DNA of 64,000 nucleotides from an uncultured Candidatus Bathyarchaeia archaeon (GTDB lineage Archaea; Thermoproteota; Bathyarchaeia; RBG-16-48-13; CAYPFQ01), in NCBI GenBank assembly GCA_964473665.1, contig CAYYPV010000015.1:7793-71792 (forward strand). The letters are read 5' to 3'. The notes beneath the pieces are model-generated. The model worked only from the letters and a program-made list of their open reading frames with translations, searched no databases and was not told the DNA's origin. Shown piece after piece: positions 14,717 to 52,020 of the stretch (within the stretch, counting starts at the first letter, position 1; every line of letters begins with the position of its first letter). The position numbers were made by a program, and so were the translations under genes.

Positions 14717-15424
14717 TTATCCCAGATCATTAATTCCAGTTTCAGTTAATTTGAAGTAACATCGAGCGCGCGGATGATTCATTCCTAAAAATTTTTCGAG
14801 TGCAGCTTCCCGAACATCTGTTCTTTGAGTTTTTTCCAAGTGCACAATTACTTTCGACCAGAATTTAAGAACACGTTCAGCTACAGGTTCAATATCTGGC
14901 TTTTGATCTTTACCAAAGACATTGTAAACCTGGCTAGTCAGTATTACTGCAATTTTTTTTTCACCGACGATTTGAGCAAGATAGGCTAGTTGACGATTTA
15001 ACTCTCTATTCAATGCAAATGTTTCTTCCATTGAACCTAATTCAACTCGGTATAAAGATGAAATCGTATCGATAATAACCACAACAACATTTGGTGTAAA
15101 ATAATTATCAAGATTTTCGATTAGATGGATTTGTTCCTTAAAATTTTTGGGAGAAAAAATTACAATATTTGGTGAGATTTTTTCGGTATATTGATGCGCT
15201 ATTTGAGACAGCCGTATTGAAGTGAACGCATTATCTGAATCAATGAATATCGCCTTAAATCCCTTTTTTGCGACGTTTACTGCGCATTGAATTGCAATTG
15301 TTGTTTTCCCAGTGTCTGCCTCGCCATATATCAGTGAAATATTTCCAGTTGGAAAGCCTGTTCTTAGCATTCGATCAAATGAATAGCAACCAGTAGATAT
15401 AGCTTCGATTGATTGGGCGCTCAA
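14717..15424 (-). CDS. RecA-superfamily ATPase, RadB/KaiC-like
   Basis: Walker A GEADTGKTTIA, FIDSDNAF, Walker B-like VVVIIDTISSLY. 235 aa. Confidence 0.65.
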   Translation of the reverse strand: MSAQSIEAISTGCYSFDRMLRTGFPTGNISLIYGEADTGKTTIAIQCAVNVAKKGFKAIFIDSDNAFTSIRLSQIAHQYTEKISPNIVIFSPKNFKEQIHLIENLDNYFTPNVVVVIIDTISSLYRVELGSMEETFALNRELNRQLAYLAQIVGEKKIAVILTSQVYNVFGKDQKPDIEPVAERVLKFWSKVIVHLEKTQRTDVREAALEKFLGMNHPRARCYFKLTETGINDLG

Positions 15425-33434: not shown

Positions 33435-34976
33435 TTGAGCGAAGAAAGAGCTAAGAAGGCGCTGATAAGCGCAATAAGCGCTGGCTACCAGTTGGATAGA
33501 GATGCCCTTTCGTTCTTGGAAGTACTTCCTGAAACGTGTGAAACTGCGGATGTCGTTAAAAAAGCTGTTGAGAAGGCGAGTGGCCTCCCGCAAAAAACTA
33601 TGTTTATTTCCCGTGACTTATTAGAGGAGGCAGCGGAGGAAATTTTACCTGTAAAAGAAACCGAGAAACCGTGCATTGTTGAAGGGATGACTGGAAAAGA
33701 GATTTTTCACCCATATGCAAAGGAAATAAGTGCAGAAATGAAAATAATCGCAGATCCGACATCAATGAACTCAACCGGATCCATAGATGACTTTCTTCAA
33801 TGTTTCCGCGACCGTTTCAACAAAATTGAGAGGTTGTTAAGACAGAGGATGGATGTAAGGGGCGCCGTTTCAATTCAAGAAGCGTTGAATGCTAGACCAA
33901 ATACAGAAGTAAAAACAATCGGTCTTGTTTATGATAGACGTGAAAGAAAGAGGACAATCATGTTACAAATAGAGGACTTGGAAAATTCAGCGACTGTGAT
34001 GATTCCCCCATCAGCGTCACAGACCGTCTTCGAGAAAGCGCAGAAAATACTCCTCGATCAAGTAATTTGCGTTTGTGTAACTAGAAGTAGAGGCGACCTA
34101 TTAATTGCAAGCGACATAATACTACCAGACATACCTGAAAGAAAACCAATACATGCGAAGGAAAATGTCTGTGTAGCATTAACGTCAGACCTTCATATAG
34201 GAAGCCGCGTATTCCTAAAAGACGTACTTAATAGGTTCATTCTTTGGTTAAACGGCAAACTTGGTTCAACTAGAGATAGGGAATTAGCAGGGTTAGTAAA
34301 ATATGTCGTAATAGCTGGAGACCTAGTTGATGGAATAGGCGTCTATCCCGAGCAGGAAAAAGAGCTTGAAATTTCTGATATCTATGAACAGTACCGGATA
34401 GCGGCTCAGTACATAGAGCAAATTCCAGATTACATTGAAGTCGTGATAATTCCAGGAAATCATGACGCAACTAGGCAGGCCCTACCGCAGCCAGCCATAC
34501 CAAAAAAATATGCTGAACCGATCTACTCGGTAAGAGAAGTCACTATGCTAGGAGATCCAGCAACAGTGCAGCTCCATGGTGTAAACCTTCTACTCTATCA
34601 TGGAAGAAGCTTAGAGGATGTAATAGGATCAGTACCGCACTTAACCTATAACCAGCCTGAAAAAGCGATGGAACTCTTGTTAAAAGCACGTCACGTAGCA
34701 CCCGTGTACGGCAAAAGAACACCGATTGCACCAGAATCACATGACCAGCTAATAATCGAGGACTGCCCAGACATTTTCCATGTCGGCCATATTCATATTA
34801 ATGGCTATGAAAGCTATCGCGGAACCTTGTTAGTAAATTCAGGTGCTTGGCAGAAGACTACAGAATATCAAAGAAAAATGGGACTAACACCGACGCCTGG
34901 AAGAGTACCGATCGTAAATTTAGCAACAATGCAATTAACGGAAATGGATTTTATGGGTTATGAACTGTCTACGTAA
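33435..34976 (+). CDS. DNA polymerase II (PolD) small subunit DP1 (TTG start)
   Basis: N-terminal DP1 domain, OB region, Mre11-like phosphoesterase motifs (DLHIGS, GDLVDG, GNHD, GHIH). 513 aa. Confidence 0.85.
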   Translation: MSEERAKKALISAISAGYQLDRDALSFLEVLPETCETADVVKKAVEKASGLPQKTMFISRDLLEEAAEEILPVKETEKPCIVEGMTGKEIFHPYAKEISAEMKIIADPTSMNSTGSIDDFLQCFRDRFNKIERLLRQRMDVRGAVSIQEALNARPNTEVKTIGLVYDRRERKRTIMLQIEDLENSATVMIPPSASQTVFEKAQKILLDQVICVCVTRSRGDLLIASDIILPDIPERKPIHAKENVCVALTSDLHIGSRVFLKDVLNRFILWLNGKLGSTRDRELAGLVKYVVIAGDLVDGIGVYPEQEKELEISDIYEQYRIAAQYIEQIPDYIEVVIIPGNHDATRQALPQPAIPKKYAEPIYSVREVTMLGDPATVQLHGVNLLLYHGRSLEDVIGSVPHLTYNQPEKAMELLLKARHVAPVYGKRTPIAPESHDQLIIEDCPDIFHVGHIHINGYESYRGTLLVNSGAWQKTTEYQRKMGLTPTPGRVPIVNLATMQLTEMDFMGYELST

Positions 34977-35538
34977 GTCCATGTGCAATAAGTCGAGCTA
35001 TCCTAACAGGTTCAGGTACTTTAGAAATTACAGATAATCTGCGTGTTATTTTTTTAGCCCAACCAAGATTTGCGCCGATAACTTCGATGTAGATTGGCAG
35101 CTCACCTGATTTTGATGTAACCATGTATATTGGTCCAAGTTTTTCAATAATTGCCCAGCGACGCTCCCAATCTTTAAAATGATCCATTAATGCATTTTTG
35201 ACAGCCACATTATCTGGTTTCTTTCTAGAAACGATAATTACAGGTATACCGAGTTTTTTGTTTACCTTGACGGGATCTACTAAATTAAATCCAGCAAAAG
35301 AAACCCCACTAAGCATTACAACGTCGGCACTGATACCTCTCAACGTTCGAAGAAGCTTATCAGTAGCATCCAAACCATCAACAGTAATCGTACAAGAACG
35401 AAAATTTTCAAGTTGCATATCTTTCATCAAAATCACAATGAGTAAAGTCTTTCCATGCCGAAATCCCTCTGCATGAAAACTGCCCTCATCAACACCAGCA
35501 ACTCTAATTGGATTTAGTTTTGAGACAATTCGGCGCAT
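34969..35538 (-). CDS. UPF0215/DUF99-family protein (internal Met start assumed)
   Basis: AGVDEGSF...ITVDGLDAT...PVIIVSRK pattern. Ends overlap both polD-DP1 and orc1. Confidence 0.5.
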   Translation of the reverse strand: MRRIVSKLNPIRVAGVDEGSFHAEGFRHGKTLLIVILMKDMQLENFRSCTITVDGLDATDKLLRTLRGISADVVMLSGVSFAGFNLVDPVKVNKKLGIPVIIVSRKKPDNVAVKNALMDHFKDWERRWAIIEKLGPIYMVTSKSGELPIYIEVIGANLGWAKKITRRLSVISKVPEPVRIARLIAHGLT

Positions 35539-36751
35539 AATCCAGCAACCGTCCAACCCAACTATCATCAATGAAAATGTTCCTAATAACACTGCTAGAA
35601 ACGCCAATTGAAACTTTCTTTGTTCGCCCGTACCGTCCAAAACTAACGACTCGTGCGTTGAGAACACCCATGATATCAAGCTCGTTTATTAGTCCGCTTA
35701 CTCTACGTTGCGTTAAAACTTCGACGCCGAGCTGACCACAAAGTTCCTTGTAAACTTCAAAGACATCGCCGGTAATGGATCCATTTGAATTAGTTTTTTT
35801 TATTAAATATACACCAAAGAGAACAAGTTTGGAGTGTAATGGGAGAGTTTTTAGAACCTCCACAACTCTGTCTTGTTCAATTTTTTCCTGCGCTTGGCGT
35901 ACATGCTCTTCCGTTACATGTTTTTCACTATGTCGTTCAGCTAACTCACCAGCAACCCTCAGTAGATCTAAAGCACGTCTAGCGTCACCGTGTTCAGCTG
36001 CAGCTAAGGCGGAACATAAGTTAATCACCCCTGCTCCCAACGCGCCGTCTAGGAAGGCCAATTTTGATCTCTCTTGAAGTATGTCATGTAGTTCAGGTGC
36101 TGAGTATGGTCTAAATACAGCTTCTTCTTCGCTTAAGCTACTTAGAACTCGTGGGTCTAATAATTCTTTAAACCGTAGATTGTTGGAAATGCCGAGTATC
36201 GAAACTCTACCGAATTTAAGGTTTTCGTTAATTCTAGTTAGCTCGTAGAGTACAGCGTCTCCCTTGGCTTTTATTAACGCGTCTACTTCGTCAAGTACAG
36301 TGATTAATAGAATGCGTTTTGACTCTAATGCGCCCTTGAATCTGTCGAAGACTTCACCGACAGCTAGCCCTGTGAACGGTATGTGTAAACCGATTGATTC
36401 GCAAAGTTGAGAGAGAACGCGGTAATCTGTGCCGGCGATTCTACAATTTACGTAACAAACTTCAATGGACGCATGCAGTTCGCGACTTTTCCTAACCAGT
36501 TTATCTAGCACGAATTTGACGACGGCCGTTTTTCCTGTTCCAGTTTTACCGTAAATAAAAATGTTTGATGGCCTAGATCCATTTAGAACTGGCGCTAGAA
36601 TACTTCCTATCATTCGCGTCTGCTCGTCTCTATGTGGTAAATAAGCTGGAATAAAATCATGACGCAAGACATCTCGGTTCTTAAAAATCCTGGATTCTTG
36701 AAGAAAGCTTTCAAAAAGATTATCAAGTAAATCTGTTCGCTCTAATGTCAT
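35504..36751 (-). CDS. cdc6: Orc1/Cdc6 replication initiator
   Basis: AAA+ Walker A IYGKTGTGKTA, Walker B LDEVD, C-terminal winged helix. 415 aa. Confidence 0.9.
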   Translation of the reverse strand: MTLERTDLLDNLFESFLQESRIFKNRDVLRHDFIPAYLPHRDEQTRMIGSILAPVLNGSRPSNIFIYGKTGTGKTAVVKFVLDKLVRKSRELHASIEVCYVNCRIAGTDYRVLSQLCESIGLHIPFTGLAVGEVFDRFKGALESKRILLITVLDEVDALIKAKGDAVLYELTRINENLKFGRVSILGISNNLRFKELLDPRVLSSLSEEEAVFRPYSAPELHDILQERSKLAFLDGALGAGVINLCSALAAAEHGDARRALDLLRVAGELAERHSEKHVTEEHVRQAQEKIEQDRVVEVLKTLPLHSKLVLFGVYLIKKTNSNGSITGDVFEVYKELCGQLGVEVLTQRRVSGLINELDIMGVLNARVVSFGRYGRTKKVSIGVSSSVIRNIFIDDSWVGRLLDYAPNCLKTKSN

Positions 36752-36881: not shown

Positions 36882-37202
36882 TCATCTTTCAATTTGTTTA
36901 ACCAGATCCGCGAAGATACCAAAGGCCTCATTAATGACTGCTAGCGTTTTATCTGGATTAAGTTTTAGTCCCGCTCTTAAAATCAGCGCAGTTGTTTCGT
37001 CATTAGGATAGTTGCGAACTCTACCGTTTTTCCCTATAAGATAGAAGTAAACCTGCCGCGGGTGTATCCCGACAGCCTTAGCCGTAGCTGTAGGACTGGA
37101 TTCACATTGCCGGTAAACTGCCTTAAATAGTTCCAGCCTTAATTTTTTTGGCATAAAGCTAGCAATCTTATCCAAGCGTTCTGTGTTCAATAGTACGCAC
37201 AC
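36882..37202 (-). CDS. Small putative HTH protein
   Basis: 106 aa, TATAKAVGIHPRQVYFYL helix-turn-helix-like segment. Confidence 0.35.
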   Translation of the reverse strand: MCVLLNTERLDKIASFMPKKLRLELFKAVYRQCESSPTATAKAVGIHPRQVYFYLIGKNGRVRNYPNDETTALILRAGLKLNPDKTLAVINEAFGIFADLVKQIER

Positions 37203-37388: not shown

Positions 37389-37415
37389 TCTCCAGTAGAA
37401 ACGCAGGTGTGGAGG
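37389..37415 (+). promoter_or_regulatory. ORB-like origin recognition box 2 with a downstream G-rich element
   Basis: tctccagtagaaacgcaggtgtggagg matches the archaeal ORB core CTCCAGTGGAAACG. Confidence 0.5.
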
Positions 37416-37563: not shown

Positions 37564-37578
37564 GTTTCCACTGGAAAA
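37564..37578 (-). promoter_or_regulatory. ORB-like origin recognition box 3, adjacent to an AT-rich unwinding tract
   Basis: gtttccactggaaaa is the reverse complement of TTTTCCAGTGGAAAC. Flanked by A/T runs. Confidence 0.55.
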
Positions 37579-37754: not shown

Positions 37755-38201
37755 GTGTTAATAACACAAGAGGTTACATCTATGCCGCCACGAAAAGTTA
37801 AATTTGAAGTTCTTGATCAAGAAGGAAATCGCTTCTCGATAGCATTTGAAGGCTGCGTCACAAGAGACAGAGTTTTACAGGTAATTGATTTAATTGAATT
37901 ACTGGGCGGAGTACCTGCCGCAGAATCTAAAACTGAAAGAAATTATAACGAATTATCTAAAGTTGAACGAATTCAAGAGCTTATCAAACAACAATTTCCA
38001 GCTGGCTGGTTCGCATCAAGAGACGTGCAAGATGCGTACGAGAATACAGTTAATCAGCCTATCGGATTAAGCACAGTGGCCACTTACCTAACCAGGCTAA
38101 GTGAGAAAGGCGTACTTATTAGAGGAGGATCTGTAGCAGAGCGGCGGTATCGTCTAAGAAGAGAATTTTTACCAGAAGGATCAATGAAACTTACTACTTA
38201 G
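37755..38201 (+). CDS. Winged-helix DNA-binding protein
   Basis: C-terminal wHTH (STVATYLTRLSEKGVLIRGGSVAERRYRL). Confidence 0.5.
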   Translation: MLITQEVTSMPPRKVKFEVLDQEGNRFSIAFEGCVTRDRVLQVIDLIELLGGVPAAESKTERNYNELSKVERIQELIKQQFPAGWFASRDVQDAYENTVNQPIGLSTVATYLTRLSEKGVLIRGGSVAERRYRLRREFLPEGSMKLTT

Positions 38202-38970
38202 TGAGATGTTTTCGCAATTCTCGCTGAAATTTTTTAGCTAAACTTGCTGCCGTTTCTTCAGGGCTTTCTGCAAGGCCCTCTTTTACTGGAACCTCCGTTA
38301 GTGGAAGTTTCTTCATCATTTCCTCTACAGGGGCTCGTGCTTTTTCGCTAATGCTATAAGTATATGGAATTTTAGATCCCTCTCTTTCAACATAACCCGC
38401 ATCAGAAAGTTTCTTCATAAGGCGTGCTGTATGCTCACGTGATTTTCCAATTATTTTTTGCAGTTCTGGAGCTGGCTTTGAGCCATCTTGAATAAGTATC
38501 TCAAGAACACGCATTTCGGTTGCAGTCAAATGAGCAACCGATGTGGGACTTACTGCCAACGCTTCGGTTTCTGGCAACAATCCTTGATACCTATTGTCTA
38601 AGAGATTTATTTGATCTTGCATTGTTTTTTGCGCTCCAATTAATTTATTGGTTTGTTCACGAACAGTAATCATATGTTTAGCTACTGTTCTTGCTGCAAT
38701 TAGTGATGTTTCAACACCCGTTACTAGGCTATCTATTTTTTCACTCTGTTTACTTACCTGCACTTCTATTTTTTCGACTGATGTGCGCGTTGCTTGCGCT
38801 TCTTGTGCAATAAGGTCAGTTTTTTCACCTTGCTTCTGAAGACGATCGTGGAAGGTTGTAACAATAGCCTGCGTTACATCTTTTTCGTTTACATAACCTG
38901 CTCTTGCTTTCCCAATCCAGCGATAGAGAATAATTAACGTAGCTACCAGTACACCTACTGAGGTAATCAA
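38194..38970 (-). CDS. Membrane-anchored coiled-coil protein with C-terminal MarR-like wHTH
   Basis: N-terminal TM helix, long coiled coil, C-terminal LTATEMRVLEILIQDGSKPAPELQKIIGKSREHTARLMKKL. Confidence 0.5.
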   Translation of the reverse strand: MITSVGVLVATLIILYRWIGKARAGYVNEKDVTQAIVTTFHDRLQKQGEKTDLIAQEAQATRTSVEKIEVQVSKQSEKIDSLVTGVETSLIAARTVAKHMITVREQTNKLIGAQKTMQDQINLLDNRYQGLLPETEALAVSPTSVAHLTATEMRVLEILIQDGSKPAPELQKIIGKSREHTARLMKKLSDAGYVEREGSKIPYTYSISEKARAPVEEMMKKLPLTEVPVKEGLAESPEETAASLAKKFQRELRKHLTK

Positions 38971-39075: not shown

Positions 39076-39663
39076 TTATTTTCTTCTCTCTGGTTTAATC
39101 AGCGCGGATACTACATCGATTTTAGTTATAATTCCCGAAATATTGCCGACATCACTTAAAACTAACACAGCCGGTTCATTTCTTCCTAAAACTGTTAGAA
39201 CATCAGTTATACTCGCATTTTCAGTAACAGTTGCAAAAGGATCCTCCATTACGTCTTGAACAGGACTACCGTACACTTTTTCAGGTTCATGAGCAAGAAG
39301 TAATCGTTTCACTATAGTCGCCTCTTGAATGCTACCCGCCGTCCTCCTTCCTCTTAGTACTGGTAATTGTGAAACACCATGTCTTCTCATTATTTCAACG
39401 GCTCTTCGAATGCTGTCAGTAATATCAACTGTAATAACTGGAGTATGCATAATGTCCTTCGCCGCTTTCTTTTCCTTCGAAACTGTAATTGCAGTAATAA
39501 TTTTCCTAAGAGTTGACAGACGAGGGTCCACCTGGCCTGATTCAATCCTTGCTATAAGTGCTTGGCTTACTCCCGCGCGTTTTGCAAGCTCCTTTTGAGT
39601 TAACCCAGTTAATTTACGCAGTCTCCGTATATCCTCTGCGCTAGGTAATCTTATTGTTGCCAA
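39076..39663 (-). CDS. HTH (XRE-family) plus CBS-pair domain regulator
   Basis: LTQKELAKRAGVSQALIARIESG HTH followed by two CBS motifs. Confidence 0.7.
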   Translation of the reverse strand: MATIRLPSAEDIRRLRKLTGLTQKELAKRAGVSQALIARIESGQVDPRLSTLRKIITAITVSKEKKAAKDIMHTPVITVDITDSIRRAVEIMRRHGVSQLPVLRGRRTAGSIQEATIVKRLLLAHEPEKVYGSPVQDVMEDPFATVTENASITDVLTVLGRNEPAVLVLSDVGNISGIITKIDVVSALIKPERRK

Positions 39664-40074
39664 GCTAATTCGCCTCTAAAAATTTACAGGATAATTTCTC
39701 TACTACAATAACTAAATAAATTATGGTATCATTTTATTTTATGAAGTTGCTTAATTTTACCGGGAGCTCATTAGGAGGGTCTTAGGGACCTTATTGAGCC
39801 TAGGACACGACCCTGTCCTGAAAGAACTTGTGATATCGCATAATATTACTTTGAACACTGGGATAGCCTGCTCTAGGCTATGCTAGGGCACTATCTTGTG
39901 ACCTAGTGTGATGTAACATTGACTGAGTGCGTAGTTATAGTATCACATGTGATTCTAGCTCTTCAATGCTAATGGTTTTTACATTTAGCGCTTTAAGCAA
40001 TGACAGAATATGAAAAAGAGATAAAAAAGAAGCGTTATTAAACTAAGATTCTATTTTTTGAACCATTTGAGGTT

Positions 40075-42399
40075 TTGATAAGTGAAATGAAGCGAGCGGC
40101 GGTTATACGCATTGCTGGGATAGTTCAGGGAGTAGGCTTCAGACCGTTTGTTTATAGAAGTGCCGTAAAAAATGATTTGCTCGGTTACGTGACAAATCTT
40201 GAAGACGCTACAGTAGAGATAACCGTTGAAGGCGAAGAAGGAAACATTAAACAATTCATTAAAGTACTTAAAAGTGAGGCGCCCCCCGTTGCAAACATTC
40301 AATCTATTAAAATCTCTTGGCAATCATATGAAAGATGTTTTAACAAGTTTGAAATAAAAAAAAGTAAGAAAAAACGTCTCTTCTACGGGTTCATGATACC
40401 GCCAGATATAGGTATATGCCATGAATGTATTGAAGATATTTTAAGTCCAGAGAAAAGACGCTGGAACTACTATCCATTCACATGTTGCGCCCATTGCGGG
40501 CCTAGGTTTACTGCAACATATGAATCGCCATATGATCGTGTTCGAACAAATATGCGTGATTTCCCACTATGCGAAAAATGTCAGCATGAGTATGAAGATC
40601 CGATAAATAGACGCTTTCACGCACAAGGTATATGTTGCCCAAATTGTGGGCCTCAAATTGCGCTCTACACTTCTAATGGCAAAAAAGTGAAAACAGGTAA
40701 TCCTCTCCAAGAAGCCGCCAAGCTCCTTGATGAAGGTTATATAGTCGCAATTAAGGGCATAGGTGGTGTTCATATTGCCGCAAAAACAAAAGATGATAGA
40801 ATTCTTGAAAAGATTCGAAAAAGGCGTAGAAGACCAAATCAACCGTTCGCTGTAATGTCACCCAACGTCGACATAATTAAAACATACGCAGCTGTTTCGC
40901 AGGAAGAAGAAAAACTATTAACCTCCTGGCAAAGACCCATTGTACTTCTAAGAAAATCCTCAAACTATTACTTATCTGAGCTGGTCTCTCCAGGATTAGA
41001 TACAATAGGTGTAATGTTACCTTATACTGGAATTCATCTCATTCTCTACCAATTTGTAAAAGAACCAGCCCTAATAATGACTAGCGGCAACGATCCCGGT
41101 CTACCAATGGTCATCACACATAAAGAAGCTTTCAAAACCCTAGGACGAATAGTCGATTATCTCCTCCTTCATAACCGCGAAATCGTAAACAGATGTGACG
41201 ACTCTGTACTTAGACTAATTAATGGAACACCGACATTCATACGACGCTCACGCGGCTATGTTCCGTCACCAATAAAAATACCCATTAATGATGAAATAAC
41301 CGCTATTTCAGTAGGCGCTGAGCTTAGAAATACTGGCGCAATTATTTACAAAGGAAACTGTTACTTAACTCAACATATAGGTGATATTGAAAACCTTGAG
41401 ACGCTTAACCATTTAGAGCAATCTTTAAGGCATTTATCTGTCCTTCTAGGAGTTAAGAATGATGTAGATGTTATCGCATGTGATTTACACCCAAATTACA
41501 TTACATCGCGTTTAGCGCAAGAGCTATCGCAGAAAAAAAACATACAACTAGTTCAAGTTCAACATCACCATGCTCATATTACTTCAGTAATGGCCGAAAA
41601 CAGAGTTCCACCAGACCAGTCAGTTATAGGAATAGCAATGGACGGCATCGGATATGGGCCTGATGGCACCGTTTGGGGAGGGGAAATTCTTGAAACCGCA
41701 TATCAAAGCTATGTTAGACGCGGCCACTTACAATTACAGCCCATGCCTGGAGGAGATCTATGCACGTATTACCCAGTAAGAATGTTCGTATCAACTCTAA
41801 GTTCAGTTCTGTCAGAGCAAGAAATTCGCGACATCACAAGAAGCCACGTAAAAAAGGGTCTTATACGCGGACAAAGAGAACTGTCAACAATTTTTAAACA
41901 GATTAAAAACTCAACAACAACAAAAACAACAAGTTCTGGTCGCTTATTAGATGCCATCGCTGCAGCTACGGGAATTTGCTATAAAAGAACATACGAAGGT
42001 GAACCTGCTATGCGGCTTGAAACTGCAGCAAACGAGGGAGACCCATATAAAATAAAGTTAAAACCTAAGATTTTACAGATAGATGGTAACTATGTGCTAG
42101 ACACCAGCCAACTCATATATGATATTATTACACTAGACCGCCAGAGGATTGTTGATATATGCGCAGCGGCCCAGCGGGCCTTCGCTATAGGTATGGCTGA
42201 AATGGCTATACGGGTAGCAAACGACCATGGAATACGCACAATAGCCATATCTGGAGGCGTTGGCGTTAACTTTAAAATCACACGTGATATTGAAGACTAC
42301 GTGCGGGGTCACATGTTGCATTGTATCCGTCACAGAATAGTGCCGCCAGGCGACGGCGGCTTAGCCTTAGGGCAAGCTATTTCAGCGTGTTTAATGTGA
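40075..42399 (+). CDS. hypF: [NiFe]-hydrogenase maturation carbamoyltransferase HypF (likely ATG start at 40087)
   Basis: Acylphosphatase domain (GIVQGVGFRPFVY), two CxxC...CxxC zinc-finger pairs, YrdC-like and Kae1-like domains. 774 aa. Confidence 0.85.
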   Translation: MISEMKRAAVIRIAGIVQGVGFRPFVYRSAVKNDLLGYVTNLEDATVEITVEGEEGNIKQFIKVLKSEAPPVANIQSIKISWQSYERCFNKFEIKKSKKKRLFYGFMIPPDIGICHECIEDILSPEKRRWNYYPFTCCAHCGPRFTATYESPYDRVRTNMRDFPLCEKCQHEYEDPINRRFHAQGICCPNCGPQIALYTSNGKKVKTGNPLQEAAKLLDEGYIVAIKGIGGVHIAAKTKDDRILEKIRKRRRRPNQPFAVMSPNVDIIKTYAAVSQEEEKLLTSWQRPIVLLRKSSNYYLSELVSPGLDTIGVMLPYTGIHLILYQFVKEPALIMTSGNDPGLPMVITHKEAFKTLGRIVDYLLLHNREIVNRCDDSVLRLINGTPTFIRRSRGYVPSPIKIPINDEITAISVGAELRNTGAIIYKGNCYLTQHIGDIENLETLNHLEQSLRHLSVLLGVKNDVDVIACDLHPNYITSRLAQELSQKKNIQLVQVQHHHAHITSVMAENRVPPDQSVIGIAMDGIGYGPDGTVWGGEILETAYQSYVRRGHLQLQPMPGGDLCTYYPVRMFVSTLSSVLSEQEIRDITRSHVKKGLIRGQRELSTIFKQIKNSTTTKTTSSGRLLDAIAAATGICYKRTYEGEPAMRLETAANEGDPYKIKLKPKILQIDGNYVLDTSQLIYDIITLDRQRIVDICAAAQRAFAIGMAEMAIRVANDHGIRTIAISGGVGVNFKITRDIEDYVRGHMLHCIRHRIVPPGDGGLALGQAISACLM

Positions 42400-43501
42400 T
42401 GTCACAATAATCATGAATTTTTAGAGGCATCCCAAGCTCAACAAGCTTAAGACCCCTCATGCACTCTCGATAAAATTAAGTGACTCCACAAAATAAAATG
42501 CCCATTTTAGTTTAAAATGAAAAAATTTACCTTGAAAGCAAATAGGTCTGTCTTCTTAGTATCGATAATGAGTATCCAATAAAGAATTGCTAGAAAGATA
42601 CTGGTGAAACTTCTAAAGTTGAAAGGACAAAATCATTTGATCAATAGTGATTAAAGATGGTCGTGATGAAGGATGGAAATGTAACAAGTCATTGGAAACA
42701 AAGGACCTTAATTTTTAAAATAGAAAGAGTTATAATTTATTACAAAATAAATTCAATTTTTACTAGGAAAAGAATGAACCGGAATATCTTCTAATAATAT
42801 CCAACCTGATAATAATTACTTTATCGCGAAATAATTTTGATCTCTTATTAATCTTCGCATATTACCATCTGAATTTATCCAATAAACTCTATTTTTTATA
42901 AAAAATACTATTTTATAAAAAGTTATGCGAATATTAATTATTCAGTTATTAAGCAAACGAATAATAATTATAAAGTATGGATTATATTTGGTCAAATATT
43001 ATACGGGAAAATTAAATTCTATTAAGAAGACCGGGGAAATTAGCTAATTTAATATTTAATTCTATTAAGAAGACTAAGGAAATCAGCTGATTTAATCAAG
43101 AGCTCATTAGTGGACATAAATTTTACTTAAATTTATACCCAGACTAAGTATGACAAATGCAGAACTTTCCTGAAGGGAAGTTTACACACTTGAAAAGTAG
43201 GAAAAACCCTTTGGACGAAAGAGCCAAAATAAAACTTTCAGGTAAAGGAATTAAAGAACTATGATTCGTTTTTTGGTTAGCTAATATTAATCTTAAAATT
43301 ATCCCTGATATTACATTGCACTTGTTAAAGAATAATAACGTAGCTTAGCCTTCGGTGAAACTATTTCAGCGTGTTTAATGTGATGTCACAATATGTCACG
43401 GATTTTTAGAGGCATCCTAAGCTCGACAAGCTTATTCAGCCCCCTTTCCTCAGGAATCAAAGAATTATAATTCTCCACTCGTTTAGCTAATAGTGCGCTT
43501 A

Positions 43502-43573
43502 AAAATCACACGTGATATTGAAGACTATAAGTGGAGTCACATGTTACATTGGATCTGTCACAGAATAGTGTAA
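43502..43573 (+). pseudogene. Fragment copying the C-terminal 23 codons of hypF (KITRDIEDY..HMLH.I.HRIV*)
   Basis: In-frame nucleotide similarity to hypF 42273-42345, ending in a stop. Confidence 0.5.
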
Positions 43574-45724
43574 TCGCTTAGCGCTGGGACAAGCTAATGT
43601 ACGTGTTATATGTGATGCTACATTATATCACGAGTTTTTCGACAAGTATACAGGCTTAAGCAAACTGAACGATTCTTTAGTATTAGTTTCCTATCTTCAT
43701 TTGCTACATTATCTAAGATTGGCTTGGTGCTTTGGCGTTATTCACCTGCTTAGTTCTCTATCTGTTTCACTACGGCCGTTAGTAACTAAGACATCTTAAA
43801 GAGCCTGCCACCTTTGGAAGGTATAAACCCACACCCTAAACCAGTCCGTCAAAGGCTAGAATGTCTAAAATGATAGGTATAGTTCAAGATGTTCCGATAT
43901 ACAACTATTTTCCTTATCTGCTTTCAGGTATCCATAGAATTTAACTATGTTCAATCTTTAGTTGCATAGACCTCTCCATACAGCCAGTAACTATAATGCT
44001 AAATAGGTTTAAGGGCTTTAACAATCTTCTAATGGAAACTAGTTCTGTCATTAAAAATTTTTCCGAAATGGTTTATGAGTATACTTGTCCGATCTTTTTG
44101 ACCGATGAAAGAACGGCCACTGTCTATCTTTGTTTGAGCAAAGCAGGATAAGATATGTTGTGAAGCTGCTTTTCTTTAACCTCATTAACTAATATGAATA
44201 TTTGCTTTATTCCTTCAGGGTTAAGCATTTAGTTCACTTTATTACTTTATTAGATTGTAAATGGGCAATGTTGACAATTGAGTGGATTGCGGCCATTTTT
44301 TTGACCATGTGCAATGGAAAATACGTCATCTATAACATGTAAAGTAATTAAAGAACCGTGATTCGCTTTTTCTTTACTGAACTCTAATAATAAATCATGA
44401 ATAACATTAAGGTTTACACGCAGAGTCCATATACAGCAGACTAGCAAATAGAATAGTGCCGACAGGCGATGACTACTTAGCCTTAGGGCAGTCATTTCAG
44501 TATGTTTAACGCGACATTATTAGACATAACAATTGTTTCTAAGGATAACTGTAATTTTAAGTACTGCTCCCGCCTTTAAATCTGTGATATCACATTATAT
44601 CACATGTTTACGACAGCCTTCTGGGCCTAATACGCTTCCTAAGATCCTTCTAGTGCCCCCTCGGTCAAATTAAGCAATTCTACAAAATAAATAGTCACAT
44701 ATTAGCCTAAAGATGGAAAGATATTGGATGGATTCATCGTGAAGCGATACGACTTTGTCTTCTTAGACTCTACAATAATGATTAATAAACGAATTGATAA
44801 GGCACTTTGGTGAAACTCCAGCGGAAGGAGGATTTCTTTTTATCAATTAGGAAAGCAATGAAGGGATTTTTATTGGAAAATGTAATGTGTCTTAGGGCAA
44901 AATGAATTTGATTTTGAAGAAATAAGATCATTTGTAAAAATGAAAAATAATGGAATTTTATGTATATATAAATAGATTACAAAACAAATGCTGGATTTAT
45001 TCAAAAATAAAAGCATGGACCTTCTTCAAATTGGTGAGTTATGGTGATTTATGCGAACAATTTTTAGATTTCTTATTAATTTTACATATTCGATGATTTG
45101 AATTTATTTAATAAACTCAATTTATGATAATTATTTTATAACTATTGGCCGTTTTCTATTTAGAAGATGTTATCAGTACTGATGGCATCAGTACCAGTTA
45201 TTCAATCATTAAGCAAAATGTGGTAATAGTACGAAAATAGAGTATATGATCCAAATACGTTGAGATATACCGAAATTCTAAGAATGCGGGCTGAAGAGAT
45301 TTAGGATAATCTGACTAAGATTTCAGGATGGATACTAATTTGATTTGTCTAAATTTATACTTAGACTAATTATAGTAAATGAATGATCATTGAAATGTAA
45401 CTTTATATTTGGAAAGCAAAAGAGAATTCATTTAGGAGAAAGGTTAGAGATAGAATTTTGGATAAAGGAATTAAAGAACTGCTATTCTCTTTTGTCTAGC
45501 TAATACCAATATTGAAACCAGTATAAAATTGAGATTTATGGTGTAGTAACATGCTAAATTGTACATACCACTTACAGAGCTGGCGGGCAATACCGTTAAG
45601 GCAAGTTATTTTAGTGATTTATTGTGATATCATAAAATATCACTGCTATTTTTCTTCGGGATTTTTATGGCGTATAATTTGAATTATATATTATTTCGGT
45701 CTAAATATGTGATGTCACATTATA

Positions 45725-46219
45725 TCACATGTTTTTCGACAACTTTCTAGGCTCAACAAGCTTCTTTAGGCTCTCCTCAAGCTCTTGCTGTAGGATCGTA
45801 GTTACTTTAAGATCTTCATTTGTGGCTTCTCCCGCTTCTATTCTTCCCCATATTTCATGGTATGCTTCAGCGTAACGTTTCAGATTATACGCAACTTCTG
45901 CATATTTATCAAACGTTGGATCCTCAAAAAAGCCTACATATCCTAGGAGAAAAAGAGTATAAATTGTTTGAATGACATTTCTACGAGCCTGTTTTAAAGT
46001 CCTCGTGAAGGCCCCGCGGCTTAAACCTTCCTTTTTTAGCCTTAATTTAACTTTTTCACGGTATTTTAGGCGTTTTTCTATATTTTCTTCAGATAAAATG
46101 TCAATTAACAAAGTTTCTAGCTGTATTTTTGTTAAATTACTATTTTCTAGAAGTATTTTTGTTATTGGGTCGTTTAAAATACGTTTTATCCAATTCTGAA
46201 CAGAATTTAAGTCGCTCAA
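45725..46219 (-). CDS. Hypothetical 164-aa protein whose 3' end lies inside a repeat unit; paralog remnants are present at the other repeat copies
   Basis: Intact ORF. C-terminal ...KKLVEPRKLSKNM is encoded by the repeat. Degenerate copies (..KLVELRMPLKI..) at 42400-42460 and 43380-43470 on the minus strand. Confidence 0.45.
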   Translation of the reverse strand: MSDLNSVQNWIKRILNDPITKILLENSNLTKIQLETLLIDILSEENIEKRLKYREKVKLRLKKEGLSRGAFTRTLKQARRNVIQTIYTLFLLGYVGFFEDPTFDKYAEVAYNLKRYAEAYHEIWGRIEAGEATNEDLKVTTILQQELEESLKKLVEPRKLSKNM

Positions 46220-47506
46220 ACTTCACAACTCCTACTTGCTTATTGAGGATACATTTTTGTATACACAACTAGATATTAAAATCGGTGGGCTTTCCATTTA
46301 AATATCCGTCAAAAGTTATCTGAGATATCACAGGGTATTACCTTTTTTCAAATAAAACTTAGCATGCAGTTTTTTGGATGAATAATAACATATTTACATT
46401 AGAATTGCTGTTTGTGCAGTGTACCGTGATTTTATTGAATTGACCAAAAATATTGTGGTTGTTTTCCGACGAATGTAACTTAGTACAAACATTTCTTTCC
46501 TCTTAGGGGAGATTGACTCAATTCTTTCAGTAAAGTTCTATAATAATCCATTTCTGAAGCAAAGATTGTATTAAATTCATTAAAAATGGTATTATAAATT
46601 ATACTGCCTGGATGTTATCAGTGGATTATAGTGTTTCTAATCTCTAACTATGTATTACGTGCTGAGTTCTTATGAAGAAAATGATAAGAATTTTTTTATC
46701 CAAAAAAGAGATGGCCCAAAATATATGAATTGGGAAGGAAGGTAGCAAAATATTAGTAATAAATACATATCATTGATGCAATGCCTGGGATTAAGACGAT
46801 ATTTTCAGTCAGGCATTAATTTGCTTGCGTGAAAAAAGGTATAGTCAGTGCAAAAGCATGATAGTACATGCATTTTTATAGCAAGTGCATGTCAATTTCA
46901 TATCATTATGCAATAAAACGAAGCATATTATTATAGGTACTAAGCGATAAAAGCTGATTTCTAACTGATTATTTTATTAAATATAGGACTCAACTGTTGA
47001 CATTATTCCACTCATAGATCCATATGAAACTCAAGTCAAACCGTTAGGAGTGCATAAAGAAATTTCAAGAGAAATAAGGATATCTTAAAGTGAGTCAGAT
47101 ACTGCAGGATGAGCTTGAGTAGGGCCTAAGGAAGCTTGTTGAACATAGGACATTGTCGAAAAACATGTGATAAATTGTGATATCACATATTTTTAAGGCT
47201 GTAACTTTGTTTAAACTTATGCATTCTTCACCCTTAGATATATGACCCGATCAACTTGATTAGGCAGAACTAGGCCTGAAATATGATATGCTTGGCCTAA
47301 TTCGCTAAGTCTTGAACACAAAATTACGCCTACCAAAATTGTGAAATAATTGGTATACCGCATTCATTAGTTCAAAATTCAAATATAATTAGGCATTGCT
47401 GGAGAACTGAATATAAACAGTTTAGTCCACTAACCTTAAAACTTAGTTAATTGACAAAAGGTATAGACTTTTAGTAATTATCTAAGCGCTGATGTGGGAA
47501 ATAGTT

Positions 47507-48588: not shown

Positions 48589-51500
48589 TTGCAAATAATA
48601 GCGACAGAAAATTACAAGCAATACTTTATGCAGATGGAAAAACAACTCGAAAAACTCTACGCTGTTGCTAAGCAAGCTAGAATTAAAGGACTTGATCCAA
48701 ACCTTGAACCAGAGCCCCGCATTGCAAAAGACCTCGCAGAACGTGTTGAGGGACTCGTCGGCCCAAAAGGAATAGCAGAAAGGATACAAGAATTAAGTGG
48801 AACAATGTCTCAAGAGATGATGAGCTTCAAAATTGCGCAAGAAACCATGTACGGAAAATTCGGTCACATGGATGAAAATCAAGCAGCGGAGCAAGCAATA
48901 CGAACTTCACTAGCCATTTTAACGGAAGGCATAACCGCAGCACCACTACAGGGGATTTCAAGCGTAAAAATAAAGCAAAATTTCGATCGAACCAAATATT
49001 TGGCCATATACTTTGCTGGACCAATTCGTTCAGCTGGCGGTACAGAACAAGCATTGATTCTAGTTATAAGCGACTTCGTCCGGCGAATATTAGGTCTTGA
49101 TAAATACAAACCAACAGAATATGAGATCAAACGCTTCATCGAAGAGATCAGAATTTACGAAAGGGATGTATCACGCTTTCAGTATCATGAATCTGACGGA
49201 TTCCTCGAAAATGTGTTACATAATTTACCAATCGAAGTGACTGGAGTAGGCACTGACCCTATTGAAGTTGTATCATTCAGAAACCTTCCAAGAATTGAGA
49301 CAAATAATGTTAGAGGAGGGGCCCTTCGGGTTGTTAACGATGGTATCGTAGGCAGATCAAGAAAAGTTATGAAAATAATAGACGAACTTGGAATTGAAGG
49401 ATGGGATTGGTTAAGAATAGCACGTGAATTAAAAGAAGAAGAGGCAGCCGAAGTAGCAGAATTCATGTTTATGGAAGATGTAGTTGCTGGAAGATCAGTT
49501 TTCTCCTTTCCATCAAGAAGCGGTGGCTTCAGGCTTCGTTACGGGCGCTCAAGAAATACTGGCCTAGCAGCTATCGGTGTACATCCTGCCACAATGGCCG
49601 TCCTACAAAATTTCCTCGCAATAGGCACACAATTACGCATTGAAAAACCCGGAAAAGCAGGTGTGGTAACTCCAGTAGATACAATCGAGCCTCCAATCGT
49701 TAGGTTAAAAGACGGCTCAGTTATCAGAATTGAATCAATTGAGGAAGCAGAGAAACTTAGAGACAGCATTGATAAAATTCTCTTTGTCGGCGATTTGTTA
49801 ATAGCGTTTGGGGAGTTTCTCGAAAATAATAAACCCTTAGCACCATCGGGATTTTCAGAAGAATGGTGGATTGAATTTCTAAATACGATCATAGCAAAAA
49901 ACTATGATAACTCTGTTGAGGAAGTAGCCGCTGCAATAGGTATACCATTAGCACGATTACAATCTTTACTAAAAAATTTCCTCACAATAAGACCAACTGC
50001 TGAAGAAGCTGTAACCATGACCCAAAAATTGAAAATTCCATTACATCCGCACTATACTTACTTCTGGCACGCAATATCTCTTGACGACTTCTTAAAACTT
50101 AGGAAAGACTTCCAAGAAGCAGAACAACTAACAGAAAACGGGATGATTACAAAGATCGAATTATCACTAAAACCAGACATTAAAAAAATTCTTGATTCAC
50201 TCTGCATACCTCACATAGTTAAGAATAAAAAAATAATACTGATTGAAGAAGCGCCTGCAGTTGCTTTCAGCCTAGGCTTAGTTAACCCTGAAGAAAAAAT
50301 CAAAACAGCAAAAACAACTTTGGAAGCGATTAAAGAACTAACAGGGTTCACTATTATAGAAAAAGCACCCACATCCATAGGTACAAGAATGGGACGCCCA
50401 GAAAAAGCAAAGCAAAGAGCAATGACACCCCCAGTCCACGTTTTATTTCCAGTAAGTCTCGCTGGCGGTTCACAAAGAAACATTCTTGAAGCTATTAAAA
50501 AAGGCTTCATCGAGGTTGAAATTGCCCGAAGAAGATGTCCAAACTGTAGTGAAGTAACCTACAAAATTAAATGCCCGCTTTGCGGCGCTGATACAAAGCG
50601 TGAACAGATATGCCCCATCTGCAATAGAACTCTAAAGGAAGAAACATGCCCAATATGCAAAGTTCGCACAGTATTCTTTGAAAAAAAAACAATAAACATT
50701 AAGGAATTATTCAATGAAGCTTGCAAAAAACTAAACATAACTCCACCAGAGCTCGTAAAGGGAGTAAAAGGTCTTACAAGCGAAACAAAAATACCTGAAC
50801 AGATTGAAAAAGGGCTTCTTCGAGCAAAAAATAACGTCCAAGTATTCAAAGATGGAACAATTCGATTTGATGCGACAAATGTACCATTAACGCATTTCAA
50901 ACCAACAGAAATAAACATCTCTATAGAAAAACTTCATGAACTAGGTTACGATTGTGATATGTATGGAGATTCGCTACAAACTCCAAATCAAATTTGCGAA
51001 TTAAAAGTTCAAGATATAATTATTCCAGAAAAATCTGCAAAATATCTAATCGATATCTCACACTTCATCGATGAAGCACTACAAAAAATTTACAATCTTC
51101 CTCCATATTATAACGCAACAAGAGAAGAAGATTTGCTTGGACATTTAATTCTAGGTTTAGCACCTCACACCTCAGCAGGAGTTATAGGACGGATCATTGG
51201 TTTCACAAAGGCAAACGCTTGCTACGCCCATCCACTTTGGCATGCAGCAAAAAGAAGAGACTGTGATGGAGATGAAGACGCGATAATTTTAGTTCTAGAT
51301 GCTCTAATCAACTTCTCTAAGGAATACCTGCCATCGCAAATCGGCGGAATGATGGACGCACCTTTAATAATAACGCCGATCATTAACCCATTTGAAGTAG
51401 ACGATGAGGCTCACAATATAGACGCTGCATCTAAATATCCAATAGACTTTTACGAAAAAACTCTGCTTGCAGCGGATCCAAAAATTGCCGCGCAAAATAT

Positions 51501-52020
51501 TGACTCAATAGCTCATAGACTAGGCACTCCCGAACAGTATGAAGGTCTACACTATACACATGCAACTACAGACATTAATGCTGGCAATCTTGAGAGTGTC
51601 TATAAGAAACTAGGCGCGATGACTGAGAAAATGGAAGCACAACTTGAACTTGCAGAAAAAATAAGCGCGGTTGACGTTAAGGAAGTAGCCAAAAGAGTTC
51701 TAACAACGCACTTCATTAGAGACATATCGGGCAATCTCAAAGCATTTGCAGGACAGAAATTCCGGTGCATGAAGTGTAATACAAAATTCAGAAGAATACC
51801 AATGGTAGGCAAATGTCCAAGGTGCGGCGGAAAAATCTCTCTAACGGTTCATAGAGGTGGTATTGAGAAGTACCTAGAAGCAGCCGGCAATCTAGCAAAA
51901 AAATACAAAATTGAGGAATACTACATTGACAGAATTTCATTAATAGGAGACGAAATTGAAATGCTTTTTAAATCATCTATTGAAAAGAAAAAGCAACCAA
52001 GTCTAACTGAGTTTATCTAG
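48589..52020 (+). CDS. DNA polymerase II (PolD) large subunit DP2 (start possibly an internal ATG near 48628)
   Basis: DP2 N-terminal pattern (...AKQARIKGLDPNLEPE...AERVEGLVGP), central catalytic region, C-terminal zinc fingers (CPNC...CPLC...CPIC...CPIC; CMKCN...CPRCG). 1143 aa, no intein. Confidence 0.9.
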   Translation: MQIIATENYKQYFMQMEKQLEKLYAVAKQARIKGLDPNLEPEPRIAKDLAERVEGLVGPKGIAERIQELSGTMSQEMMSFKIAQETMYGKFGHMDENQAAEQAIRTSLAILTEGITAAPLQGISSVKIKQNFDRTKYLAIYFAGPIRSAGGTEQALILVISDFVRRILGLDKYKPTEYEIKRFIEEIRIYERDVSRFQYHESDGFLENVLHNLPIEVTGVGTDPIEVVSFRNLPRIETNNVRGGALRVVNDGIVGRSRKVMKIIDELGIEGWDWLRIARELKEEEAAEVAEFMFMEDVVAGRSVFSFPSRSGGFRLRYGRSRNTGLAAIGVHPATMAVLQNFLAIGTQLRIEKPGKAGVVTPVDTIEPPIVRLKDGSVIRIESIEEAEKLRDSIDKILFVGDLLIAFGEFLENNKPLAPSGFSEEWWIEFLNTIIAKNYDNSVEEVAAAIGIPLARLQSLLKNFLTIRPTAEEAVTMTQKLKIPLHPHYTYFWHAISLDDFLKLRKDFQEAEQLTENGMITKIELSLKPDIKKILDSLCIPHIVKNKKIILIEEAPAVAFSLGLVNPEEKIKTAKTTLEAIKELTGFTIIEKAPTSIGTRMGRPEKAKQRAMTPPVHVLFPVSLAGGSQRNILEAIKKGFIEVEIARRRCPNCSEVTYKIKCPLCGADTKREQICPICNRTLKEETCPICKVRTVFFEKKTINIKELFNEACKKLNITPPELVKGVKGLTSETKIPEQIEKGLLRAKNNVQVFKDGTIRFDATNVPLTHFKPTEINISIEKLHELGYDCDMYGDSLQTPNQICELKVQDIIIPEKSAKYLIDISHFIDEALQKIYNLPPYYNATREEDLLGHLILGLAPHTSAGVIGRIIGFTKANACYAHPLWHAAKRRDCDGDEDAIILVLDALINFSKEYLPSQIGGMMDAPLIITPIINPFEVDDEAHNIDAASKYPIDFYEKTLLAADPKIAAQNIDSIAHRLGTPEQYEGLHYTHATTDINAGNLESVYKKLGAMTEKMEAQLELAEKISAVDVKEVAKRVLTTHFIRDISGNLKAFAGQKFRCMKCNTKFRRIPMVGKCPRCGGKISLTVHRGGIEKYLEAAGNLAKKYKIEEYYIDRISLIGDEIEMLFKSSIEKKKQPSLTEFI

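Follow-up and report, generated by a model that had tools for sequence, protein, structure and literature searches.

The TGTGAT-ATCACA palindrome repeated in this 64-kb stretch of Bathyarchaeia DNA (the window) is real. Judging from its conservation in related genomes, we consider it rather probable that a sequence-specific DNA-binding protein recognizes a conserved, oriented array of multiple sites with the palindrome at its core, and that the extra copies in the window are decaying duplications. The array appears to belong to a two-gene Bathyarchaeia module a few kb from oriC, consisting of ORF16x (here ORF164) and a membrane-anchored coiled-coil winged-helix (wHTH) protein, and is probably autoregulatory for this gene pair.

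Copies of the palindrome in the window

The exact form TGTGATRTCACA occurs at 42395, 43379, 44583, 45708 and 47176, i.e., at five sites which give seven strand-matches where 0.04 are expected, a number reached in 0 of 100 shuffles. Degenerate copies with at most two mismatches are located at 39829 (TGTGATATCGCA), 39907 (TGTGATGTAACA), 43611 (TGTGATGCTACA), 45623 (TGTGATATCATA) and 46321 (TGAGATATCACA), and every exact and degenerate copy of the window is confined to 39.8-47.2 kb. A long form, ATGTGATRTCACAWTWTATCACATGTTTTTCGACA, lies at 45706-45741 and has near-copies at 44581-44616, at 43609-43645 and, reverse-complemented, at 47153-47190. In a scan of the 64-kb window, the strict 10-mer GTGAYRTCAC and all three-half-site clusters were found only within 42396-47182, and 22 of the window's 47 TGTGAT/ATCACA hexamers fall inside 39829-47182. 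Four half-sites at 53.1-53.7 kb were dismissed as isolated chance hexamers. The nine positions given in the original prediction are all present, five as exact and four as degenerate copies, with its position 45600 corresponding to 45623; the copy at 46321 is missing from its list. The motif also occurs upstream as well as downstream of hypF, as had been proposed, the upstream copies sitting in a decayed inverted copy at 39730-39957.

The features of the locus are listed below, where S1, S2 and S3 are the position classes of sites around ORF16x, H is a hypF 3' fragment and X an ORF164 3' fragment.

38194..38970, minus strand: wHTH protein, the candidate binder, with N-terminal hydrophobic helix, coiled coil and C-terminal winged helix (MarR/TrmB/Lrs14-like)
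39076..39663, minus strand: XRE-type HTH and CBS-domain regulator, co-oriented with the wHTH gene
39730..39957: decayed inverted H-motif-X copy, carrying degenerate motifs (39829, 39907) and ATCACATGTGAT (39942-39953)
40075..42399, plus strand: hypF, carbamoyltransferase for [NiFe]-hydrogenase maturation, probable ATG at 40087
42395..42416: motif copy on the TGA stop of the intact hypF (ATG TGA TGT CAC A), third half-site degenerate
42400..45723: 'desert' of 3.3 kb, missing in the close relative L088
43379..43399: duplicate motif TGTGATGTCACA-ATAT-GTCAC, after hypF 3' fragment 43343-43378 (92% identical to 42359-42409)
43611..43631: degenerate duplicate TGTGATGCTACA-TTAT-ATCAC, after hypF 3' pseudo-fragment 43493-43612
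44583..44604: intact duplicate TGTGATATCACA-TTAT-ATCACA, after hypF 3' fragment 44441-44514 and a decayed S3 with spacer
45614..45643: S3-like site GTGAT-N5-GTGATATCAT-N5-ATCAC, ~65 nt from S2
45708..45729: site S2, full three-half-site motif TGTGATGTCACA-TTAT-ATCACA, overlapping the ORF164 TGA stop (complement of 45725-45727)
45725..46219, minus strand: ORF164, member of a ~160-aa Bathyarchaeia family, predicted all-helical
47067..47192: inverted 126-nt copy of the ORF164 3' end and motif, 79% identical, with TGTGAT at 47166-47171 and TGTGATATCACA at 47176-47187

The genes hypF and ORF164 are convergent. The last ~130 nt of hypF (H) hold three TGTGAC half-sites, and an internal degenerate site is located at 41828. 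The S3-like site adjoins a decayed hypF 3' remnant (about 45560-45620), and the two together match the compact hypF/ORF164 junction of the relatives L009 and L088.

Conservation as DNA across Bathyarchaeia

The element was compared across 87 related Bathyarchaeia loci, with stop-codon and last-codon counts made on 83 distinct loci. Its consensus is an oriented arrangement of three half-sites, TGTGAY|RTCACA-N1-5-ATCACA, in which a palindromic pair is joined by a third half-site, and GTGAYRTCAC with the third half-site is present in 85 of the 87 loci. S2 places GTGAYRTCAC at offset -1 from the ORF16x stop, overlapping the stop codon, in 75/87 loci. S3 is inverted and accounts for 48 copies at +100 to +300 from this stop, lying 100-260 nt downstream and ahead of the wHTH gene, while S1 is represented by ~35 copies at -1200 to -800, i.e., about 0.9-1.1 kb upstream. 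Outside these position classes GTGAYRTCAC is nearly absent from the 87 loci. Orientation is likewise fixed (S1 L-type in 26/37, S2 R-type in 78/85, S3 L-type in 43/53), a further half-site pair often follows S3 (RTCACA in this case) or precedes S1, and half-site density on both sides of ORF16x is 10-50 times background, with depletion inside the gene. ORF16x is thus bracketed by site arrays. Beyond the locus, about 400 kb of related DNA held no motif copies, and a GTDB-wide scan with the extended motif matched at four loci only, all in Bathyarchaeia, each at the ORF15x stop and one per genome. A literature search for the motif strings returned unrelated primers only. According to the original prediction, confinement of all copies to one duplicated block would speak against function; within this window the copies are indeed so confined, but function is not thereby refuted, because the same element is conserved across genomes.

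This conservation does not follow the reading frame. The ORF16x stop is TGA in 73 of the 83 distinct loci and the last codon is NTG or NCG in 73/83, yet seven different amino acids are encoded there. The motif is retained when it is read through (..RDVTSHS*) or lies beyond an earlier stop, and S1- and S3-type copies persist where the underlying DNA encodes aminotransferase, NadE or HypF. A short dyad-symmetric element conserved as DNA irrespective of coding is one feature expected of an operator, and the constraint, as read from these alignments, is on DNA and not on protein or RNA pairing. The locus offers a clear example in which DNA-level constraint fixes a stop codon and shapes the coding sequence of three unrelated neighbor genes.

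Duplication history and competing explanations

The desert comprises about four to five decayed tandem units of the form [hypF-3' fragment H]-[motif]-[ORF164-3' fragment X]-[~0.9 kb AT-rich filler U], with unit boundaries at about 42400, 43343, 43498, 44450 and 45560. Two further junction copies are inverted. One lies in nadE, where 47067..47192 is inserted in a nadE pseudogene at the position of the upstream site S1. The other lies upstream of hypF, where 39730-39957 matches the hypF 3' end, motif and downstream sequence with 66% identity over 245 nt (E=1.6e-15) and stands in place of a 106-aa gene of L088; its breakpoint carries the degenerate palindrome ATGATACCAT just beside 39732, near the HTH-CBS/wHTH operon promoter region. 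The window's extra copies are missing from a relative that is 83-85% identical, and within the copies motif columns are better kept (77%) than flanks (63-66%). A derivation of the filler units from decayed ORF164 copies was rejected, as no similarity was found at the DNA or profile level. The alignments indicate that the motif is numerous in this window only because the hypF-3'/motif/ORF164-3' junction was repeatedly duplicated and then decayed. The desert is accounted for by decayed duplications, not by a new kind of element. Among the options in the original prediction, the best fit is an operator copied together with the gene ends: the site is conserved in place in 87 loci and its copies are embedded in hypF-3'/ORF164-3' fragments, with the operator role itself being putative.

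A different history is conceivable in which the motif is, or doubles as, a site-specific recombination or attachment (att) site and the desert reflects serial integrations of small elements at the hypF/ORF164 junction, each of which would duplicate the att-flanking gene ends, the inverted copies then resulting from recombination between inverted sites. The unit form is the pattern of gene-end integration, the filler units, unrelated to ORF164, are foreign DNA at this locus, and each of the four junctions not shared with L088 (39732/3, 42399/400, 45723/4 and 47082-47192) lies at the motif or a degenerate palindrome; moreover, S1, S2 and S3 are oriented and composed of several half-sites, a frequent trait of recombinase sites. 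In the window, a gene 3' end recurs in serial direct repeats around foreign AT-rich DNA, a likeness to att sites of archaeal integrative elements, which duplicate the 3' end of their target gene. Here, however, the fillers flanked by hypF 3'-end repeats hold no integrase, recombinase or other ORF, and the duplicated segment includes the end of the convergent gene too. The motif lacks the central spacer typical of tyrosine or serine recombinases, it is conserved in genomes without the insertion, its three sites keep a stable syntenic layout in the 87 loci while rearrangement is seen in this lineage only, and unequal crossing-over between copies accounts for the tandem array just as well. In a related context, the motif was absent from virus and plasmid contigs (one viral-contig scan gave 0 matches, the other two unrelated chance matches), on which basis a virus- or plasmid-borne attP was rejected. 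We regard a recombination or att function as unlikely. An origin of the motif as the terminal inverted repeat of a miniature transposable element, e.g., at 45703-47192, is extremely improbable, despite 126-nt inverted arms (79% identical) around a 1.24-kb segment. These arms copy the ORF164 coding end and part of the S3-S2 spacer, no target-site duplication is present, no copies are dispersed elsewhere in the 64 kb, and the enclosed gene belongs to a syntenic, single-copy family and is not a transposase; with the motif position being syntenic across the class, the miniature-mobile-element option of the original prediction is abandoned.

The location of the motif at gene 3' ends could also point to an RNA-level role. 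It might form a hairpin that terminates the transcripts of convergent genes or marks them for processing, or a long-range S2:S3 stem within a co-transcript. The window version is followed by T5 (ATCACATGTTTTTCG), ATGTGAT...ATCACAT allows a possible 7-bp stem, and S2 and S3 are mutually reverse-complementary. Against this, most loci lack the T-run, and the motif is found with either orientation to transcription as well as within genes of both strands. The half-sites are invariant instead of covarying. No correlation was seen between the variable positions of S2 and S3 (p=0.13), and the S2:S3 stem was rejected for this lack of covariation, so that an RNA function appears highly unlikely. An Rfam scan of 36-48 kb returned only two chance-level matches, none relevant at E<=1; tRNA genes are lacking near the region. 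Proximity to the replication origin has to be weighed as well, since the module always occurs in a replication island with DP2, DP1, cdc6 and canonical archaeal origin recognition boxes (ORBs) 5-8 kb away. The motif itself is not an ORB. An ORB/oriC identity, prompted by cdc6 and PolD nearby, was rejected, as canonical ORBs lie elsewhere (37390-37402 and 37564-37576 in the window; 14799 and 15011 in the related locus L005), the DNA upstream of cdc6 lacks the motif in the window, in L005 and in L006, and the motif does not show the ORB arrangement (..TCCAGTGGAAAC.. consensus, inverted pairs flanking an AT-rich DUE beside orc1/cdc6). By analogy with parS/ParB, RacA/ram or SegB sites, the membrane-anchored wHTH protein and its ORF16x partner might instead bind the clustered sites to anchor or segregate the oriC region, the locus serving as a centromere or tether. 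An example of parS lies within or after spo0J/parB, near oriC. As in bacterial parS, the palindromes are origin-proximal and persist inside coding sequence and where a gene of the module itself ends; in addition, ORF16x is bracketed by multiple sites and the candidate binder combines a coiled coil with an N-terminal membrane helix. In contrast to parS, there is one local cluster only per genome fragment, no ParB fold or ParA partner was identified, and the flanking genes examined include neither ParA or ParB family members nor a ParA/SegA-type ATPase. The support is positional and the oriC linkage may be plain synteny, which makes this role a doubtful one.

Candidate binding proteins and possible mode of action

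With regard to the favored operator-like array, the likeliest candidate for its binder is the wHTH protein, possibly together with ORF16x. In most loci, its orthologue immediately follows ORF16x and S3, and the gene adjoins S3 in ~60; where S3 lies between ORF16x and the wHTH gene (~50 loci), its distance to the wHTH start codon varies from 40 to 270 nt, and no fixed TATA signal was seen beside S3. ORF16x is syntenic and single-copy, and the ORF164 family had no match in Pfam, NCBIfam, PHROG or PADLOC. A phage or defense origin of the module was rejected, since only generic wHTH matches were found, and the XRE-HTH/CBS regulator was rejected as a general binder, as it is present only in the hypF-type clade.

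Dimers or oligomers of a protein encoded at the locus would occupy the sites cooperatively, possibly with looping of S1 to S2/S3. Binding may then control transcription of the gene pair by autoregulation, and at the ORF16x end it may act as a roadblock to, or insulation from, the gene that follows or converges. The operator arrays OL and OR around cI of phage lambda are autoregulatory and cooperate by looping. The present array may be compared to them in that several short dyad-type sites of fixed orientation, ~1 kb apart, lie on each side of a small regulatory gene. Unlike in lambda, the binder is a candidate only, sites fall on a stop codon and inside the coding sequences of neighbors, the ORF16x promoter itself is without a site, and the host DNA is an archaeal chromosome, not a phage.

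The CRP site of E. coli is TGTGA-N6-TCACA, and its pentamer half-sites TGTGA/TCACA are common to both elements. The CRP/FNR likeness noted in the original prediction is superficial, however: the spacer is 2 nt in all sites and not 6, a third half-site is present, the host is archaeal, and the locus encodes no cNMP-binding or Crp-family protein (HTH_Crp_2 is sub-threshold on the generic wHTH, 17 bits vs a cutoff of 27). Closer to the archaeal context, the TrmB-family regulator TrmBL1 binds the glycolytic motif TATCAC-N5-GTGATA of Thermococcales (PMC4706686). Both systems share the half-site core ATCAC/GTGAT and an archaeal winged-helix regulator, here a candidate. In the present element, by contrast, the half-sites are reversed in order (GTGAY|RTCAC, head-to-head, no spacer) and followed by a third direct half-site; the wHTH protein has a membrane helix and coiled coil instead of a sugar-binding domain, and the element is local, unlike the TrmBL1 regulon. 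Membership in the TGM/TrmBL1 regulon was rejected, as half-site order and spacing differ and the weak TrmB Pfam match is confined to the 60-aa wHTH.

Bathyarchaeia are abundant and uncultured, and to our knowledge almost nothing is known of their gene regulation and chromosome biology. More speculatively, and with little confidence, the site arrays, ORF16x and the wHTH protein might form an unrecognized, origin-proximal chromosome-organizing module of Bathyarchaeia, acting as a centromere or membrane tether or as an origin-insulating roadblock, whose bound sites are fragile or recombinogenic. If this were true, fragile bound sites would account for the coincidence of every rearrangement junction in this genome with a motif copy. 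What is defined here is a 19-25-nt cis-element whose positions, at least three in number, and orientations are fixed, along with two candidate binding proteins, in a module tightly linked to oriC. Together, the element and the candidate proteins provide a directly testable target that does not require culture.

Motif copies between hypF and ORF164

Exact scanning of the window located the 12-mer TGTGATRTCACA at 42395, 43379, 44583, 45708 and 47176, against an expectation of 0.04 and with none of 100 shuffles attaining this count, and one or two mismatches added copies at 39829, 39907, 43611, 45623 and 46321. All nine positions of the TGTGAT-ATCACA palindrome listed in the original prediction are thus real, five of them exact and four degenerate. 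The 7.4 kb concerned hold 22 of the window's 47 TGTGAT/ATCACA hexamers, and both the strict decamer GTGAYRTCAC and clusters of three half-sites (a pair plus a third) are confined, within the 64 kb, to 42396-47182. The motif coincides with the ends of two genes and recurs with fragments of both:

40075-42399, + strand: hypF (Pfam HypF domains), ending ...ATG TGA inside the motif
45725-46219, - strand: ORF164, a member of the Bathyarchaeia family ORF16x, likewise closing with ...ATG TGA within a copy of the motif, on the opposite strand to hypF
43343-43380, 43493-43612, 44441-44514 and ~45560-45620: hypF 3' fragments (self-comparison)
42500-43342, 43660-44449 and 44700-45560: three related AT-rich filler units of ~0.9 kb, classed as ORF-free
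47067-47192: inverted duplicate of the ORF164 3' end with the motif (79% identity across 126 nt)
39730-39957: inverted duplicate taking in the hypF 3' end, the motif and sequence downstream (66% identity across 245 nt)

By self-comparison, the 3.3 kb separating hypF and ORF164 consist of repeated decayed units, each made up of a hypF 3' fragment, the motif, ~50-100 nt akin to the ORF164 3' end and ~0.9 kb of AT-rich filler. GC content falls to 30-35% between the two genes, and a single ORF there reaches 60 aa or more (44250-44495, -). Filler U1 is clearly related to U4 (z=30) and U3 partly so, and the fillers show no similarity to ORF164, to the other loci compared or to any Rfam family; a tandem pair of 43 nt, 84% identical, lies at 43008-43093 within U1. 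Across an alignment of seven copies, mean pairwise identity is 77% in the motif columns versus 63-66% in the flanks.

The closely related locus L088, with 83-85% nucleotide identity to the window across the region, is compact: nadE is intact, and ORF164 leads into the site on its own stop codon (S2), then ~70 nt and a further site at the stop of hypF; the order continues with hypF, a 106-aa gene, HTH-CBS, a winged-helix (wHTH) gene and cdc6. The arrangement of L009 is the same, and nadE (NAD synthase) is intact in both (1910-2704 in L009, 8873-9655 in L088). Compared with L088, the window shows three differences: a 3.3-kb desert has been added; nadE has been lost, its pseudogene fragments at 46703-47447 (+) being split by an inverted ORF164-3'/motif copy (47082-47192); and an inverted copy at 39733-39975 stands in place of the 106-aa gene. 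Each junction that L088 lacks coincides either with a copy of the motif or with the degenerate palindrome ATGATA(C/T)CAT, just beside the breakpoint at 39732. From this comparison, the extra copies therefore derive from segmental duplication of a motif-carrying junction, and the multiplication of the motif in the window is ordinary genome decay. Recombination between the repeats, fragility of sites occupied by protein, or true site-specific recombination could account for the coincidence of junctions and motif.

Conserved sites around the ORF16x stop codon

Scanning GTDB, one genome per species, for TGTGATRTCACANNNNATCACATG yielded four loci. Each belongs to a Bathyarchaeia MAG with one match, and every match falls where an ORF164 homologue has its stop codon. 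Searching metagenomes with the ORF164 family alignment added 80 loci to give a set of 87, in which S2 sits at offset -1 from the ORF16x stop, on the stop codon itself, in 75 loci and only a few nt off in nearly all others, oriented GTGAYRTCAC-nn-RTCAC in 78/85. S3, located downstream and ahead of the wHTH gene, occurs at +100 to +260 in about 48 of the 87 loci (GTGAY-nn-GTGAYRTCAC in 43/53), and the upstream S1 at about -1100 or -880 in about 35 (same orientation in 26/37). Outside these three positions, the decamer hardly occurs in ~400 kb of related DNA, and additional RTCACA pairs are often found outside S1 and S3. The gap to the third half-site is 4-5 nt in the window, L009, L088 and L001-L004, and 1-2 nt in all other loci. 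Conservation of the motif extends across the archaeal class as a whole.

Half-site density reaches 10-50 times background on either side of ORF16x and is depleted inside it. Arrays of TGTGAY/RTCACA half-sites are also seen in coding sequence (L006, 9266-9402; L003, 1930-2047 and 3466-3863; window, 41828 and 42277); the genes concerned are three unrelated neighbours (aminotransferase, nadE, hypF), and the arrays lie about equally far from the ORF16x stop in each. In viral contigs (IMG/VR), single matches to a 19-mer consensus occur in L089 (9531-9549) and L090 (6634-6652); these contigs hold no ORF164, wHTH or hypF homologues, and the matches were judged to be chance.

Among 83 distinct loci, the ORF16x stop is TGA in 73, and NTG or NCG comes before the stop in 73, yet seven amino acids are encoded there. 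Certain lineages translate the motif (...RDVTSHS*), and others have it beyond an earlier TAA or TAG. S1 falls within a coding sequence, that of a divergent aminotransferase gene or, in another clade, that of nadE, and clades with hypF convergent on ORF16x carry motif copies within hypF, several of them in L003, which suggests that selection on the DNA site shapes the coding sequences of all three genes. S2 and S3 are mutual reverse complements, but within loci no covariation links their variable positions (p=0.13), and an Rfam scan matched no family. The constraint acts on the DNA. That the half-sites are invariant, do not covary and work in both orientations argues for recognition of the motif by a protein and against nucleic-acid pairing.

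The replication island and its origin

The ORF16x module is located inside a replication island, a linkage shared with two contigs, of 1.95 and 0.55 Mb, and with further loci. The replication and repair genes of the window are PolD DP1, Endo_dU, cdc6, PolD DP2, RPA and an Lhr-type helicase, and DUF87 (HerA-like) with the genes beside it belongs to the island as well in L005 and L006. In the window, these include:

33435-34976: DP1
35504-36751, - strand: cdc6/orc1
48589-52020: DP2
56138-57463: RPA
58244-61129: Lhr-type helicase

Canonical origin recognition boxes (ORBs) lie beside cdc6, CTCCAGTAGAAAC at 37390-37402 (+) and the inverted TTCCAGTGGAAAC at 37564-37576 (-), separated by an AT-rich stretch of ~160 nt, and together they form a canonical archaeal oriC. 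L005 has a matching inverted pair upstream of cdc6 (14799-14817, 15011-15029). Small ORFs without family matches flank the window pair (36882-37202, -, 106 aa; 37755-38201, +, 148 aa), and in L005 and L006 a 137-141-aa gene adjoins the ORB-bearing intergenic gap. The TGTGAT motif is absent from the ORB regions next to cdc6 in both the window and L005; it is therefore not an origin recognition box, and this candidate was rejected, although the motif always lies 5-8 kb from oriC.

Candidate binding proteins and competing explanations

What is observed is the motif with its positions, orientation and conservation as DNA, and in the best-supported reading these would constitute an operator-like multi-site array for a DNA-binding protein encoded at the locus. 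In most loci the gene immediately downstream of S3 encodes a wHTH protein of 225-258 aa that has a coiled coil, a hydrophobic helix at the N-terminus and a winged helix at the C-terminus, and that gives a Pfam MarR/TrmB match and weak Lrs14/Sta1/Csa3-HTH matches:

38194-38970, - strand: wHTH gene of the window

This protein is the most probable candidate binder, perhaps together with ORF16x. None of Pfam, NCBIfam, PHROG and PADLOC assigns the ORF164 family, which has >300 clusters of ~160-aa proteins; the structure predicted for ORF164 is all-helical (pLDDT 81.6), and neither structure nor sequence comparison gave it a significant relative. The array would control the ORF16x/wHTH pair via autoregulation and via a roadblock or insulation where ORF16x ends, with looping possibly joining the flanking arrays. 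Weak points of the operator reading are the variable distance from S3 to the wHTH start, the lack of a fixed TATA signal with S3, an ORF16x promoter without a site and the lack of a recognisable DNA-binding fold in ORF16x.

Known systems share parts of the motif. The resemblance to CRP sites proposed in the original prediction holds for the pentamer half-sites, which match those of E. coli CRP, and fails for order, spacing and the third half-site. Likewise, the TrmBL1 TGM (TATCAC-N5-GTGATA; PMC4706686) has its half-site core in common with the motif, but differs in order and spacing and in the third half-site of the motif. Membership of either class was rejected, since the geometry differs and the defining protein is absent. 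Functionally, the arrangement would be closest to operator arrays flanking a regulator gene.

Foremost among the rivals, and unlikely, is a recombination or att site. An origin-proximal centromere or tether ranks second and is somewhat less probable again; the motif's position and tolerance of coding sequence recall parS. Third, and very improbable, is an RNA element, for which the mutually complementary S2 and S3 stand beside the missing covariation. Last comes the terminal repeat of a MITE, which the inverted copies in the window might bring to mind; given their origin by segmental duplication, it hardly enters into consideration.

In the literature searched, the motif was mentioned in no relevant context. 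It represents a conserved cis-regulatory or protein-binding array with a putative binder.
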